Source of the DNA: Spirochaetia bacterium
GTDB lineage: Bacteria > Spirochaetota > Spirochaetia > SP-2023
NCBI GenBank assembly: GCA_965225855.1
Contig: CBDDCK010000005.1
Span: 800,001-864,000, forward strand
Length of the DNA: 64,000 bases
Direction of reading: 5' to 3'
Part shown: one piece after another, positions 1 through 5,759 of the stretch
Layout of the letters: each line of letters starts with the position of its first letter
Numbering within the stretch: the stretch's first letter is position 1
Position numbers and translations under genes: made by a program
Notes under the pieces: model-generated
What the model was told of the DNA's origin: nothing
Seen by the model: the letters and a program-made list of their open reading frames with translations, nothing else
Databases searched by the model: none

Positions 1-630
1 TACTATTTCAATTCTACTTCAAAGGAGTATGCAATGGCAATTACCTAAGCATATACCACCCCGAACTATAAATGGCCTGCAACTTTGTATTTTACGGTTA
101 GCCAAGCCATAGGGATAACAAACTAGCTTGGCAGCAGAAAAATTTTACCTATGAGGTGGTCTTTGGGTGTGTTATTTTTTGTGGGTGTATCCAATAATAA
201 TCGACCTAATCCATAACTATCGACTTCAAAATTCCAATAGTTATTGGGGTGTTTTGGTGTGGGCCTTTTTTGAGGGTTGGCCCAAAAACTTGAAATCAAA
301 GGGCTAAGTAATCAGACCTTTCATCTACATTTTTAGATGTAATAACAAAGACAAGAGAAAAAGACAAAATAATTTATATCAAATTTTATTAAATCTGCAC
401 TAAATCCTTTCTAATTTTGTCCCAGAATCAAATCTTTCAATGAAATCACCTTGACTCGTAATCTATTTTGGCTCATAACTGATGCAGGACGTGATAACTT
501 TGTGCCATCGGACGTGATAACTCGATTTTTTTCTCCATACCAAGGCTATAATTTGATAAAAGCAGCCTTGATAAAAAATTTACCAAGGCTGCAATTGGCC
601 AATGCAAGCGTTGCAACAACCAAACCCTAC

Positions 631-3129
631 TTACCAATTTACAACTTGAATAGCATTGGTTGGTACTGCTGGACTACCAATTCCAAATCCTGCTGCTGCT
701 TCAAGGTTGTATGCACCATCATTATCACTTTTACCAACCTTAACCAGTATCTTATTGGCTTCCGCTTTTACACTACCGCTTAAAATAATCCTTACGCTTG
801 TTGTACTTGCATCAGAACCTGTGGCTGTGTTTTCACCTGCAGCTGTGTGCTGGGGTAATGTGTATTTCTTACTACCATCACCGGATACAATCGTCAATTT
901 GCTAAAGTCCCACTCTGCAACTGTTGGCGGTAACCTGCTACCTTTAATAAATAACAAGCCTGTACGAGAATTGTAGACTAAGTTGGTGATCTGGCTTACA
1001 TACCCACTAACGGTAATCGGGTTATTGCTTGTGTCTGCTGCGCTACCACCTGCAAATCCTGCTGCTGCTTCCAGGTTGTATGCACCAGTATCATCACTAT
1101 CACCATTCTTAACCAATATATCCGTGGCTTTCGTTACTTCATAACCCTTTAAAGTAATCGTTAAGCTTGTTGTACTTGCTGCAGAACCTGTGGCTCTAGT
1201 AAAACCGATTGGGTTGTGGTTTTGTAATGGTTGACTCTTACGACCATTACCTGCGACAAACCTCAATTTGGTGAAGTCCCAGCCTGTAACTGCTTTTGGT
1301 AAATTAGTACCTGTAATCACTAACACGCCTGTAGCAGCATTGTAGGTTGCACGGGTAATTGCGGGTGGGTTACCACTAACGGTTAAGTCTTTGGCTGTAT
1401 CTAAACCCGCCCAAGCACCAGTGCCAACGCTAAGCAACCTATCTTTTCTACCATTGCTATCCATACCGGTCTTGCCATTCAGAGTAGCTTTATCGTCATC
1501 GGTAAGGTAAAGCCAAAGCGCTGTGCCATCGCTATGCAGGCGGTACTTACCTTTTGCAAGACCACGACTATCTGGCCCAGTGGCTGTGCCATCTGCAGTA
1601 TAGGAATCTAAAGCTATCCCATCTACCGTGATGGTTTGGATTTGGGCTTGGGTCGCAGTTGTAGGACTTAAGTTAGAACCTTGTACGGTTAACAGCGCCG
1701 TGCCAACATGGTAGGTTGCACTGGTAATTGCGGGTGGGTTTCCACTAACGGCCAAGGCTTTGGCTGTATCTAAACCCGCCCAAGTACCAGTGCTAGTAAG
1801 CAACCCATCTTTTAGACCATTGCTATCCATACCGGGCTTGCCATTCAGAGTAGTTTTATGTCGATCGGTAAGGTAAAGCCAAAGCGCTGTGCCATCGCTT
1901 TTCATACGGTACTTACCTTTTGCAAGACCGCGACTATCTGGCCCAGTGGCTGTGGCAGTATAGGAATCTAAAGCTACCCCATCTACCGTGATGGTTTGGA
2001 TTTGGGCTTGGGTAGCACTAGCTAAGAGAGTACCTTGCAAGGTTAACAGCGCCGTGCCAACATGGTAGCTTGCACCGGTAATTGCGGGGTTTCCACTAAC
2101 GGTTAAGGCTTTGGCTGTATCTAAACCCGCCCAACTACCAGTGCTAGTAAGCAACCCATCTTTTAGACCATTGCTATCCATACCGTCCTTGCCATTCAGA
2201 GTAGTTTTATGTTGATCGGTAAGGTAAAGCCAAAGCGCTGTGCCATCGCTTTTCATACGGTACTTACCTTTTGCAAGACTGCTACTATCTGCCCCAGTGG
2301 CTGTGCCATCTGCAGTATAAGAATTTAAGACTAGGTCATATACTTTGATGGTTTGGATTTGGGCTTGGGTCGCATTACCTAAGTGAGTACCTTGTACGGT
2401 TAACAGTGCCGTGCCAACATGGTAGCTTGCACGGGTAATTGCGGCTTTAGGCGACTGCTCTTCGGCTTTAGGTTGCTTAGGCGACTGCTCTTCGGTTTCG
2501 GTCTTAGACTGCTTATCTTCGACTTCTTCGGTTTGTTCGGCTTCGGGTAGTTCATGCGACTGCTTATCTTCAGCTTGTTCGACTTCTTCAGCTTGTTCGT
2601 CTTGTTCAGCTTCTTCAGTTTGCTTAGATGGCTGATTGTCATCGGATACTTTAGACTGCTTATCGGGTATATTCCTAACGGTTAAGTCTTTGGCTGTATC
2701 TAAACCCGCCCAAGCACCAGAGCCAACGCTAAGCAACCCATCTTTTCTACCATTGCTACCCACCTTGGCCTCAAGAGTAGCTTTATCTTTATCAGTAAGT
2801 CTAAGCCAAAGCTCTGTGCCATCGCTTTTCATACGGTACTTACCTTTTGCAAGACCGTTACTATCTGGCCCAGTGGCTGGGTCATCTGCAGTATAGGAAT
2901 CTAAAGCTACGCCATCTACTACGATGGTTTGGATTTGGGCTTCTGTAGGACTTAAGTCAGTACCTTGTACGGTTAACAGAGCCGTAGCAAAGTCGTAGAT
3001 GGCATTATTGATAGACGGCCCAGAAGATGGCCCAGAAGATCGATCATCGTCATCGGGTGGGGCGCAGGCCAAGGCCATAAAGGCCAGTAGCCAGGCTACT
3101 GGCAATAAAAGTAGTTTGAGCTTATACAT
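631..3129 (-). CDS. Modular repeat surface lipoprotein (4 A-type + 2 B-type ~120-aa Ig-like repeats, acidic linker)
   Basis: ATG at 3129 with GGAGG RBS at 3138-3142. Signal peptide MYKLKLLLLPVAWLLAFMALA|C. Internal repeats. Paralog of 45326-47476. Confidence 0.9.
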   Translation of the reverse strand: MYKLKLLLLPVAWLLAFMALACAPPDDDDRSSGPSSGPSINNAIYDFATALLTVQGTDLSPTEAQIQTIVVDGVALDSYTADDPATGPDSNGLAKGKYRMKSDGTELWLRLTDKDKATLEAKVGSNGRKDGLLSVGSGAWAGLDTAKDLTVRNIPDKQSKVSDDNQPSKQTEEAEQDEQAEEVEQAEDKQSHELPEAEQTEEVEDKQSKTETEEQSPKQPKAEEQSPKAAITRASYHVGTALLTVQGTHLGNATQAQIQTIKVYDLVLNSYTADGTATGADSSSLAKGKYRMKSDGTALWLYLTDQHKTTLNGKDGMDSNGLKDGLLTSTGSWAGLDTAKALTVSGNPAITGASYHVGTALLTLQGTLLASATQAQIQTITVDGVALDSYTATATGPDSRGLAKGKYRMKSDGTALWLYLTDRHKTTLNGKPGMDSNGLKDGLLTSTGTWAGLDTAKALAVSGNPPAITSATYHVGTALLTVQGSNLSPTTATQAQIQTITVDGIALDSYTADGTATGPDSRGLAKGKYRLHSDGTALWLYLTDDDKATLNGKTGMDSNGRKDRLLSVGTGAWAGLDTAKDLTVSGNPPAITRATYNAATGVLVITGTNLPKAVTGWDFTKLRFVAGNGRKSQPLQNHNPIGFTRATGSAASTTSLTITLKGYEVTKATDILVKNGDSDDTGAYNLEAAAGFAGGSAADTSNNPITVSGYVSQITNLVYNSRTGLLFIKGSRLPPTVAEWDFSKLTIVSGDGSKKYTLPQHTAAGENTATGSDASTTSVRIILSGSVKAEANKILVKVGKSDNDGAYNLEAAAGFGIGSPAVPTNAIQVVNW

Positions 3130-3192
3130 AAGCAATACCTCCAACAATGGATAAAGATTAGCCAACCCATACGGGCTAGTGCATAGAGCCCT

Positions 3193-3221
3193 ATTGTGTT
3201 AGGGGGGGGGAATTGAGTCAA
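3193..3221 (-). promoter_or_regulatory. Sigma70-like promoter with poly-C9 in spacer (17 bp)
   Basis: Minus strand TTGACT (3216-3221), 17 bp including G9 at 3202-3210, then CACAAT (3193-3198). Confidence 0.65.
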
Positions 3222-3310
3222 GGCCCATATAAGCTTTTTGTAAGTTTTTTACAAGTTTTTTTGTTTTTTAGTGTTGTAAGGTAGTTAAAAATCAATGCCA
3301 ATCAAAAGGC

Positions 3311-3356
3311 TTGAGATTATTTGAGATATCTTGAGATTGCTTGAGATACCTTGGGT
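3311..3356. repeat. 10-bp-period tandem repeat TTGAGATnnn x4 plus a degenerate fifth
   Basis: ttgagattat ttgagatatc ttgagattgc ttgagatacc ttgggt. Confidence 0.8.
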
Positions 3357-3736
3357 AAAAATTTGTAATACGCTAGACGCAGTCCGGGTGTTGCGTTGCG
3401 TATGATCGTAGTAAACATCATGGCACAAAGTATAAGAATTTGGTATAAGAATTTGAGTTTTTTGTATCGCAGTACAGCCCAGTTTTTAGCAAAATAATAC
3501 AATACAATTTTTTGCGATTTTTTTAGAGACTGCCACAGTCTCATTGGAAAATTCCCAGGTTGCAAATCAAAAAAGCTAGTAAGGTTTTCAGTCAAAACCT
3601 TACTAGCTTTTTGAGACCGTGGCCCGTTACCATGATATTTTGAAAGCATATTGTTGCCCAATTACTGCCGACAACCCATATGCCGAAAAACAAAAATTTT
3701 TTACTTGTTCCATTTGTGGATTCAGCCGAAAGGCAC

Positions 3737-3776
3737 AAAAAAGCGGTGCATGGTTTGGTTATCCTAGCACCGCTTT
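3737..3776 (-). terminator. Putative intrinsic terminator inside the element
   Basis: 10-bp stem AAAGCGGTGC/GCACCGCTTT with an A-run on the left (U-tail on the minus strand). Confidence 0.45.
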
Positions 3777-4106
3777 GGCTTTTTGAAGTTTTGAGCGTTT
3801 TTGCTCTGGTTTGGTGTTAAAAATGGATTCTGGCTTTTTCTCGTGCAATGAAAAATTTTTTACTTTTTTATTTTGGAAAGTAAGCCAATTTTTACCTTCC
3901 ATTTGTCCCAAAAATCCCGAGTTATCACGTCTTATCCCGTTCAGTTATCATGTCCTCTTTCACATAACCACTGCTTTGTTTTTGCTAAGTTTTTTATTCA
4001 ATAAAGGAATTAAATAGCCAGCCAGATAGTTTTCCAGTAGCATTTTTATCTTTTGTTCATTGCTATAGAGCGAATTTTTAACAATCTTCGCAACATTGAA
4101 TGTAGA

Positions 4107-5759
4107 ATGAAAACAGCCATTATTTCTCGCAGTAAATCTATTATTATCGTGATGTTGGGGACTTTTAGTTCTCGATTTCTAGGCTTTGCGCGAAATGCAA
4201 CTATTGCTTTTTATTTTGGTGCTGGTGAAAAAGCCGATGTATTGAATTTTATTCAGGCTATCCCATTGTTATTACGCCGTCTAGCTGCCGAAGGTTCACT
4301 GGAAACCGCATTAGTTCCCGAATTGGTACGCAGCTATGAGCAAGACCCTAGTTTTCTTAGCAGTAAAGCTATCTGGCGTAAATTATTGGCGGTGCAATGG
4401 TGTATACTTTTGCCACTGTGTTTATTGCTTTGGCTTTTTCCTAATCAAATTATTGACCTTTTAACTGAATTTCCAAAGCCGGAGCAACGGCAGCTAGCCA
4501 GCCAAATGCTGTATTACGTAAGCCCTTATGTTTTTTTACTTAGCCAAAGTGTGTTGTTAGGGGCTCTACTTTCCAGCCAACAACGTTTTACCCTTAGCTC
4601 GTTTACGCCTTTATTTTTCTCTGTAACGATTATTGCTACGACTGTTTGGCTGCAAAAATACTACAGTGTTTTTGCTGTATTATGGGGAATGCTGGCTGGC
4701 ATTGTGTTGCAATTACTGTTTTTGCTCCCGCCTATTTTACGCTCTGGTTATGCTTTATTGCCTTATTTTCGGTTATCTGATTTTCGCTTCGACCCTGCGA
4801 TAAAACGGATTTGCCAAGTATGGCTACCACTGTGGTTTAGCACGAGCCTTTTGGCTTTAATGCAGTTCGTGGCCCATTATTTGGCCTCCCAAACGCAAAG
4901 CGGCAGTATTTCGGCTTTGACCAATGCTTTAATTTTCTTTCAATTGCCGCAAGGGTTGATTTATGCTTCCATTGCCAAAGTTTGCTTACCTCAAATGAGC
5001 CAGCTTGCCGACCCGCGTACGACTCAAGTATTGCGCTACGGTTTGCAACAGTTATTGATATTATTGCTCCCAGCAACTCTCGTGTTATTTATGATGAGCG
5101 ATGCGCTGGTGGCTATAGCATTTCAGCGGGGTGCTTTTGCTTTGCAAGATACTTTGCTCACAGCCGAGGTGCTGCGCTATTATATTCTGGGAACTTTGCC
5201 GATTGCTGGTTTCCGTTTTTTGCAGCAATATCTGTATGCACAATCGCACAAGGTGCAGCCGTTGCTGCAAACTTTTTGGGTAGTGGCAATGGATATACCT
5301 TTGTCTTTTTACTTAATAGAGAAAATTGGTGTAATTGCTTTACCGATTGCCAATACTTTTAGTTATAGTGTGGTTGGGCTGTATTCTTATTTTATTACAG
5401 CAAGATATAGTCATAAAGATGGTGGTGGGCTGTTGTGTCGTGTACGTTGGCATCGCCTGTGTTTTGGCTTATTGCCAAAATTATTATTGGTGTGTGGTTT
5501 GCTACAGATACTCGATAGAGGGCTAGTTTATGCCGAGCAATACCTATTTGATAGAACTACACCCAATTTTTTGAATAATCTACGGCTTACGGCACAAGGG
5601 TTGGAACAGAGTCAACAATGGTGGTGGAGCCAAGGTGGTACCCTGCACAACTTCGGCATTTTGGCTATCCATGGTTTGATTTTACTAGGATTTTTTATTG
5701 TATTGTGCCGCATTATTCATATACCGTTGCTCAAACAATCGAAAATAAAAACAGTTTAA
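4107..5759 (+). CDS. murJ: Lipid II flippase MurJ
   Basis: SRFLGFAR, RRLAAEGSL and FQLPQGL motifs. Many TM segments. ATG at 4107. Confidence 0.9.
   Translation: MKTAIISRSKSIIIVMLGTFSSRFLGFARNATIAFYFGAGEKADVLNFIQAIPLLLRRLAAEGSLETALVPELVRSYEQDPSFLSSKAIWRKLLAVQWCILLPLCLLLWLFPNQIIDLLTEFPKPEQRQLASQMLYYVSPYVFLLSQSVLLGALLSSQQRFTLSSFTPLFFSVTIIATTVWLQKYYSVFAVLWGMLAGIVLQLLFLLPPILRSGYALLPYFRLSDFRFDPAIKRICQVWLPLWFSTSLLALMQFVAHYLASQTQSGSISALTNALIFFQLPQGLIYASIAKVCLPQMSQLADPRTTQVLRYGLQQLLILLLPATLVLFMMSDALVAIAFQRGAFALQDTLLTAEVLRYYILGTLPIAGFRFLQQYLYAQSHKVQPLLQTFWVVAMDIPLSFYLIEKIGVIALPIANTFSYSVVGLYSYFITARYSHKDGGGLLCRVRWHRLCFGLLPKLLLVCGLLQILDRGLVYAEQYLFDRTTPNFLNNLRLTAQGLEQSQQWWWSQGGTLHNFGILAIHGLILLGFFIVLCRIIHIPLLKQSKIKTV

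Follow-up and report, generated by a model that had tools for sequence, protein, structure and literature searches.

Ends of prophage type around a predicted surface lipoprotein gene point to a natural mini-Mu in a Spirochaetia bacterium

A 64,000-nucleotide stretch of a Spirochaetia bacterium genome (GCA_965225855.1, contig CBDDCK010000005.1, positions 800,001 to 864,000), here called the window, contains an element that carries a lipoprotein gene and lies next to murJ. The borders of the element were read directly from the sequence. It occupies positions 480-3962 (3,483 bp), with TG at 480 and CA at 3962. The genome of the window (G000) comprises 2.71 Mb in five contigs and is 94% complete; positions elsewhere in it are given as contig and coordinate. 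We name the end downstream of the lipoprotein gene A and the end upstream of it B. Both resemble the ends of a prophage that resides in the same genome. The features of the locus are as follows:

474-479, plus strand: target duplication CATAAC, left copy (6 bp)
480-542, plus strand: A end, from the prophage right end, starting with TG; 59 of 63 bases identical to that end (C5:1293766 inward)
541-613, minus strand: palindromic intergenic repeat, including a terminator-like hairpin (592-562, on the strand of the gene)
631-3129, minus strand: lipoprotein gene, 832 amino acids from ATG or 844 from an in-frame TTG at 3165
3221-3193, minus strand: promoter-like TTGACT-17-CACAAT, its spacer containing a C9 tract (G run 3202-3210)
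3315-3712, minus strand: mosaic upstream modules, shared patchwise with other loci of the lipoprotein family
3713-3962, minus strand: B end, from the prophage left end, with its TG start at 3962; 232 of 239 bases identical to that end (C5:1257688 onward)
3963-3968, plus strand: target duplication CATAAC, right copy (6 bp)
4053-5759, plus strand: murJ, a flanking host gene outside the element (Pfam MurJ, 4e-76)

Each end consists of seven terminal bases followed by the first of two 12-mers that are spaced 23 bp apart. The A end has GGACGTGATAAC at 487-498 and again at 510-521, and the B end has GGACATGATAAC at 3955-3944 and AGACGTGATAAC at 3932-3921 on the minus strand. The two ends are not simple inverted repeats; TGA and the 12-mers are common to both, and the spacers and inner sequence differ. 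For one exact paired motif the chance expectation in the genome is about 5e-7, and a looser paired pattern gave 48 matches compared with 0 for a reversed control. The lipoprotein is the sole open reading frame (ORF) above 114 amino acids within the element, and no transposase is encoded inside. The original prediction, made from the letters alone, had described TG...CA termini, paired repeats with this spacing and offset, CATAAC on both sides and one large gene; all of this was confirmed in the sequence, and the character of a non-autonomous carrier is supported. The palindromic repeat at 541-613 recurs at about 90 other places in the genome, after many genes of the lipoprotein family, with phage ends present or absent.

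The prophage spans about 1257.7-1293.8 kb of C5 (36 kb) and contains genes for terminase, portal, head, tail sheath, baseplate, repressor and transposase. Its borders are an A end (C5:1293766) and a B end (C5:1257688). The B end of the window additionally matches an intact phage-type end at C5:2030137 at 237 of 242 positions. The phage right end was found at three places with different flanks: at C5:1293766, at C4:334779, where 6.9 kb at 99.3% identity run up to the end of the contig, and at C3:774, fused to 154 bp from the phage interior. Since the right end also lies at the latter two sites, the phage itself has moved too.

The prophage transposase (586 amino acids, C5:1273165, PHROG 310) is the only match to PF00665 (rve) in the genome at E<=1. 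D144, D238 and E274 are invariant in five of five aligned homologues and, as far as its sequence tells, this is an intact DDE transposase. A Walker A motif was recognized by eye in the next gene but one. Among 69 phage records compared, all below 60% identity, the nearest are Pseudomonas and Burkholderia phages including B3, BcepMu and phiE255 at 28-38%. B3-type transposases generate 6-bp duplications and Mu generates 5-bp duplications, as stated in the relevant part of PMC8705779, and 23-bp repeats are present at the ends of BcepMu and phiE255 according to a passage of PMC2920897.

A congener, G002, provides a comparison. There, the paired motif occurs exactly twice, once at each end of a prophage with a 55% identical transposase, and each time it is preceded by TG plus five bases. 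The motif count is 48 in G000 and 0 in G001 and G040, which have transposases about 40% identical, and 0 in G003, where no transposase was found. A search with the window lipoprotein as query did not find it in G001 to G003, and the ends therefore likely passed from phage to cassette. Taken together, the sequence comparisons place the origin of the ends in a transposable prophage of the B3/BcepMu type. The original prediction is borne out as to the presence of a cognate-type enzyme elsewhere in the genome, and is refined as to the donor, which is this prophage and not an insertion sequence (IS) or a Tn552/IS21 transposon. Just outside the left end of the G002 prophage (G002:C1:257,900-262,600; L016-L017) lie two pairs of similar, apparently lipoprotein-like ORFs, which are unrelated to the window lipoprotein family.

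A whole-genome search, which demanded an intact motif and in which end conservation is therefore partly built in, yielded 62 ends whose terminus is intact, 32 of type A and 30 of type B; the predicted recurrence of the ends was thus found. A gene of one lipoprotein family lies within 1.6 kb of 57 of them, with the end facing it, and 56 of these have the same polarity: 29 B ends upstream and 27 A ends downstream of the gene, with a single A end upstream. The remaining five are three phage right ends, one phage-type left end and one unexplained end. The family has 113 ORFs covering 230.6 kb, or 8.5% of the genome, and 103 are full-length. Among these 103 genes, 18 have both ends, 13 only the upstream and 8 only the downstream end, so that 39 adjoin at least one A or B end (one B end starting with TA was entered by hand in this count). 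Two-ended genes are in excess (18 observed, odds ratio 11, p=1.6e-6), as would be expected if the genes began as two-ended units. Cassettes measure 2.35-3.9 kb. The ends have 58 different outer flanks, and two 200-kb bins of C5 contain none. At C5:2,030,137-2,030,826 an intact phage-type left end is followed by about 660 bp of phage DNA and then by cassette upstream modules, with no lipoprotein gene; this locus is a possible intermediate.

Outside this genome, the paired motif gave 0 matches in a viral contig collection. It was found in 14 genome and 21 metagenome stretches, none with a lipoprotein of the family; these are tandem repeats or unrelated, except for two phage-end matches (L034, L037). 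The latter belong to the closest named record with such ends, titled Ca. Haliotispira prima, which we take to be a spirochete and did not count as independent support.

The marks of transposition were then compared across the ends. Perfect 6-bp duplications flank 5 of the 18 two-ended cassettes including that of the window; all five differ in sequence and none extends to 7 bp. Over all ends, six-base flanks of A and B ends matched 8 times, compared with 1.1 in shuffles (maximum 6 in 500). A central TA is present in four of the five duplications and in 16 of 48 other ends, against a nearby background of 8.2% (p=7e-7). We relied on this central-TA count alone, as a target score for NYTARN was devised after all ends had been seen. 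The target bias extends to ends without a partner, which argues that the transposase likely created most of the 58 distinct junctions. None of five computationally rebuilt empty sites restores a broken gene. Two loci have unusual flanks. A and B ends lying 26.5 kb apart at C5:1,590,138-1,616,622 have the common flank CCTAAT, as if host genes and several cassettes had been moved or rearranged as one unit, although this could be chance. At C5:402,010-405,934 a two-ended cassette sits between direct repeats of 232 bp (99%) instead of 6 bp, which may stem from local hopping plus unequal recombination.

Short-read contigs of four of eight listed sequencing runs were compared with the window; the listing contained no RNA run. 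Runs X1 and X2 come from one sample, possibly the source of the assembly. Their contigs cover 1-505 and 3934-4979/6000 with zero differences and reach 26 and 29 bases into the element, which is below the 31-base threshold for bridging. Runs X4 and X5, from another study, cover the family and end regions deeply and the window flanks in short pieces only, with substitutions in the flanks; depth here does not mean copy number.

The lipoprotein of the window begins with a signal peptide and a lipobox (Cys22), followed by one repeat R, an acidic linker, three further R and two S repeats. This architecture of 115-120-amino-acid repeats of two kinds plus an acidic linker is typical of the family, in which more than 30 domain orders occur, and 103 of 105 scored members have the lipobox MALAC or MAFAC. 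A near-length search returned 89 proteins, 84 presumably from this genome and 5 from other assemblies. A profile search returned 423, many of 1,500-7,400 amino acids; in 14 of these that were scanned we found DUF4347 (five), Big_9/cadherin (two), Calx-beta (two), RTX repeats (one) and no family (four). The lipoprotein has no match among PHROGs. CrtC was its single Pfam match over the cut-off, and was rejected because no stretch passes alone. In the ESM Atlas its matches were unnamed clusters (0.91) and an SWM-repeat cluster (0.88), which are leads only. A structure model of the last three repeats (predicted local distance difference test 87) comprises three beta-rich domains with immunoglobulin (Ig)-like best matches, among them the S-layer protein SbsC (Z 8.2, root-mean-square deviation 2.5, 93 aligned) and titin Ig tandems; such middling scores indicate fold, not function. 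The repeats are thus predicted Ig-like beta-sandwiches, and homology and fold suggest a surface-tethered adhesin or variable coat protein as the likeliest role.

Upstream of the gene, the prediction had placed a promoter. A consensus-like TTGACT-17-CACAAT is indeed present, but promoter-like sites are no commoner than in shuffles (4 versus 6.6), so that this sequence and the hairpin are consensus matches only. A matching -35 plus C-tract stretch lies upstream of 108 of 109 family members examined, which does not appear to fit an arrangement of promoterless silent copies with a single expression site. The C tract varies from C5 to C9 across loci; C7 is found in 84 of 109, and C9, which gives the 17-bp spacer, in the window member only. 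In X2 contigs the tract at the window position is present only in a shorter form, with no C9. The differences in length could be assembly errors, and phase variation remains a lead.

Family members appear to have exchanged segments. When the window cassette is cut into consecutive tiles, the best match changes from tile to tile, in keeping with segmental exchange among paralogues, and the median longest tract of at least 98% identity between loci is 77 bp. The sole whole-gene duplicate pair (C1:208,154-210,382 and C5:2,027,543-2,029,405; 2,520 bp, 98.8%) has no phage ends, which indicates that another copying route is at work. Gene order is in line with this. Compared with G003, order is kept in 0 of 95 gene intervals holding a family gene, against 32 of 140 gaps of 300-1,500 bp, 14 of 114 larger gaps and 496 of 661 tight pairs, with the caveat that tolerated insertion sites may favor gaps that are unstable anyway. 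A test for reciprocal exchange against G003 gave no signal (18 pairs versus 18.9 expected); the breaks are not simply reciprocal. The cumulative GC skew of the whole contig C5 lacks a clean two-armed shape, in keeping with frequent rearrangement.

A second set of ends was detected next to family genes. A TGTAAC terminus faces about 13 of them from downstream and a related TGTAAG faces three from upstream; no locus has both TGT ends, and no transposase for them was found in G000. G001 has two Mu-like remnants in which a similar terminus adjoins minor-head and baseplate genes. These two loci, L190 (G001:C4:1,732,896) and L191 (G001:C2:17,325), are rearranged remnants with the TGT terminus and no transposase match, and are possible phage-cargo mini-Mu relics in this congener. 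At 16 family loci about 140 bp are 73-77% identical to the G001 minor-head gene. TGT or minor-head sequences, likely relics, are present at 22 of the 64 full-length genes without A or B ends. These ends likely represent a second Mu-like phage and an older round of transposition. The TGT terminus was also considered as the left end of the G001 prophage at C4:15 kb, but it points away from that prophage and the assignment was abandoned.

We consider it highly probable that the window element is a mini-Mu of natural origin whose cargo is a host gene, that the prophage enzyme moved it in trans, and that recombination subsequently reshuffled it. Support comes from the identity of the ends with those of the prophage, their fixed polarity, the five duplications, the common target preference and the intact DDE enzyme with a nearby gene that has a Walker A motif. 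The prophage's transposase thus likely helped to scatter a predicted adhesin family around the chromosome, although the fraction of the family's expansion owed to transposition by phage ends is uncertain.

Several observations weigh against this interpretation. Of the 103 full-length genes, 64 lack an A or B end, and 42 of these showed no phage relic in the searches run. Flanks are mismatched at 13 of 18 two-ended cassettes. Five of the eight flank matches are the duplications themselves, and the other three are distant and, taken alone, near the chance value (about 1.1). In the assembly, the outermost 11 bp are missing from the left end of the prophage and two of its genes are split, possibly through assembly errors; the prophage may be fixed in place yet able to supply enzyme. 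The G002 prophage likewise lacks matching 6-bp flanks. Near-identical pairs are absent among the two-ended cassettes, where shared tracts of at least 98% identity do not exceed 385 bp, and, as the only whole-gene duplicates lack ends, recent movement is not supported. On a quick N-terminal tree, from which 10 short or anchorless ORFs were excluded, end status is random (26 changes versus 26.5 shuffled). Finally, the single-CATAAC empty site that had been predicted upstream of murJ was not found in contigs of runs X1, X2, X4 and X5, in congeners or in the gene-order comparison with G003; the upstream neighbor of murJ differs in G002 and G003. The predicted spread of the gene family by the carrier was overstated: it does not account for the whole family, given the genes without ends, the cassettes lacking a duplication and the lack of near-identical copies. 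The data agree with transposition that was old or episodic, after which the paralogues recombined heavily.

Part of the same evidence could be read differently. Deleted prophage remnants might have jumped first, and lipoprotein genes might have been swapped in later via the common intergenic modules, so that the gene itself never transposed. The mosaic cassettes without identical pairs, the lack of a link between end status and gene lineage, the longer phage DNA kept at a few ends (349 bp right, about 660 bp left) and the similar phage-cargo remnants in G001 would all agree with this sequence of events. Yet the genome has no two-ended element without a lipoprotein apart from the prophage, and the ends face family genes with fixed polarity; to assume a separate swap at each of 18 two-ended sites, every time in one orientation, is less parsimonious, and we regard this course as improbable. 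The ends might also have been kept mainly for their effect on the phage, as a transposase soak or through target immunity, with the lipoprotein as passenger. Mu-like elements do make their neighborhood refractory to further insertion, as described in part of PMC8987985, and the 62 ends, with their well-conserved 12-mers, are scattered across the genome. This conservation is partly built in by the search, however, two bins of C5 lack ends, and the ends are tied to one gene family in which almost all genes are intact (103 of 113 full-length), which points to selection on the cargo. We regard it as very improbable that the ends were kept mainly for the phage.

An even slighter chance is left for a lost non-phage transposon of the IS21, IS481 or Tn552 kind, whose ends the prophage would have picked up later. 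Such elements would likewise account for the TG...CA termini, the tandem sites and the 6-bp duplications, and the genome is 94% complete. Against this stand the searches for IS21 and IS481, neither of which found a transposase over the cut-off and both of which had the phage enzyme as best match, and the rve_3 profile, which gave nothing over the cut-off in this incomplete genome (E=0.05 only). The G002 prophage has the same end architecture in a genome where the lipoprotein family was not found, which largely refutes such a source. An assembly artefact in a repeat-rich genome, to which we assign the smallest chance of all, would account for contigs that break inside phage and family repeats and for split phage genes and homopolymer differences that suggest indel errors. 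It is countered by the 58 different outer flanks, by the five perfect duplications, by X1 and X2 contigs that reach the junctions without differences and by the depth of family and ends in X4 and X5.

Further mobile and defense loci were noted in the genome. A 312-amino-acid ORF at C5:896,203-897,141 and a fragment at 1,036,406-1,036,780 are presumably IS1595-type transposase-like; no link to the ends was seen. A CRISPR array at C5:899,000-906,700 (55 repeats, 54 spacers) adjoins a gene for 1,242 amino acids that was labelled Cas9-like from its sequence. None of the 54 spacers matches the prophage, and two match the bacterium's own genome in full, at C4:45188 and C5:1987539.

The natural mini-Mu reading has counterparts among known systems. 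Laboratory mini-Mu and mini-D3112 (PMC8705779; see also PMC5847225) likewise have phage ends in native orientation around non-phage DNA, no internal transposase, and helper functions supplied in trans, which the window cassette would require as well. The cassette has inward-facing phage ends with TG...CA and 23-bp sites, a 6-bp duplication and an external transposase of cognate type, as a mini-Mu of the B3 subtype should. It differs from the laboratory constructs in being natural, of B3 type (duplication of 6 instead of 5 bp) and loaded with a host surface-lipoprotein unit; its kind of end is present at 39 loci of one gene family. Mobile insertion cassettes such as MIC231 of Bacillus cereus, in the excerpt of PMC6199540 that treats them, similarly have two ends, no transposase and a passenger gene. 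Their mobilization in trans by the cognate enzyme is demonstrated for MIC231 (PMC6199540), whereas for the window cassette it is probable. In contrast to these cassettes of about 0.7-3 kb, the window type has ends derived from a phage and not from an IS, and a single paralogous cargo family instead of assorted passengers. B3, BcepMu, phiE255 and the transposable prophages of Leptospira agree in transposase family, TG...CA termini, 23-bp period, 6-bp duplication and size (about 36 kb); the available portions of these accounts (PMC8705779, PMC2920897) concern whole prophages and report no host gene family between phage ends. We found no published natural mini-Mu carrying a host gene family in a literature coverage that is incomplete and mostly without subscription papers.

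The cargo itself also has parallels. The vlp/vsp genes of Borrelia and the vlp genes of Mycoplasma form large paralogous lipoprotein families with a conserved signal peptide, mosaic repeats and a homopolymer in the promoter spacer. Unlike in vlp/vsp, almost all copies here have an intact frame and a promoter-like sequence of their own; they lie apart from one another as single genes, and their spread is linked to phage ends.

The mini-Mu reading suggests the following course. A deletion or recombination event would have exchanged phage DNA for a lipoprotein unit. Whenever the transposition genes of the prophage were expressed, the enzyme would have bound the paired 12-mers and inserted copies of cassettes at further intergenic sites. 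The roughly 100 paralogues would then have swapped cargo and flanks by recombination and gene conversion, so that some copies have one end only, flanks do not match and genes are mosaics. The TGT ends likely date from an earlier round that involved a second Mu-like phage. The cargo would be a tethered chain of predicted Ig-like domains for attachment or surface variation. A bolder proposal, which we regard as tentative and rather doubtful, is that the host twice took over the ends of successive transposable prophages to disperse variable surface proteins. Each bout of prophage activity would copy lipoprotein units to new sites, perhaps with packaging into phage heads for transfer to other strains, and the roughly 100 copies would drive repertoire shuffling and chromosome rearrangement.

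Mini-Mu is familiar as a laboratory tool; here it would be natural and linked to a family occupying 8.5% of a 2.7-Mb genome. Host cargo at such a scale is the unusual part. The short end pair (about 63 and 75-250 bp) together with the candidate transposase might offer a genetic tool for a lineage that has none. If mobilization in trans holds, a lysogen would turn the replication enzyme of its prophage to host use, and this would provide a concrete route for expanding a variable surface-protein family and scrambling gene order.

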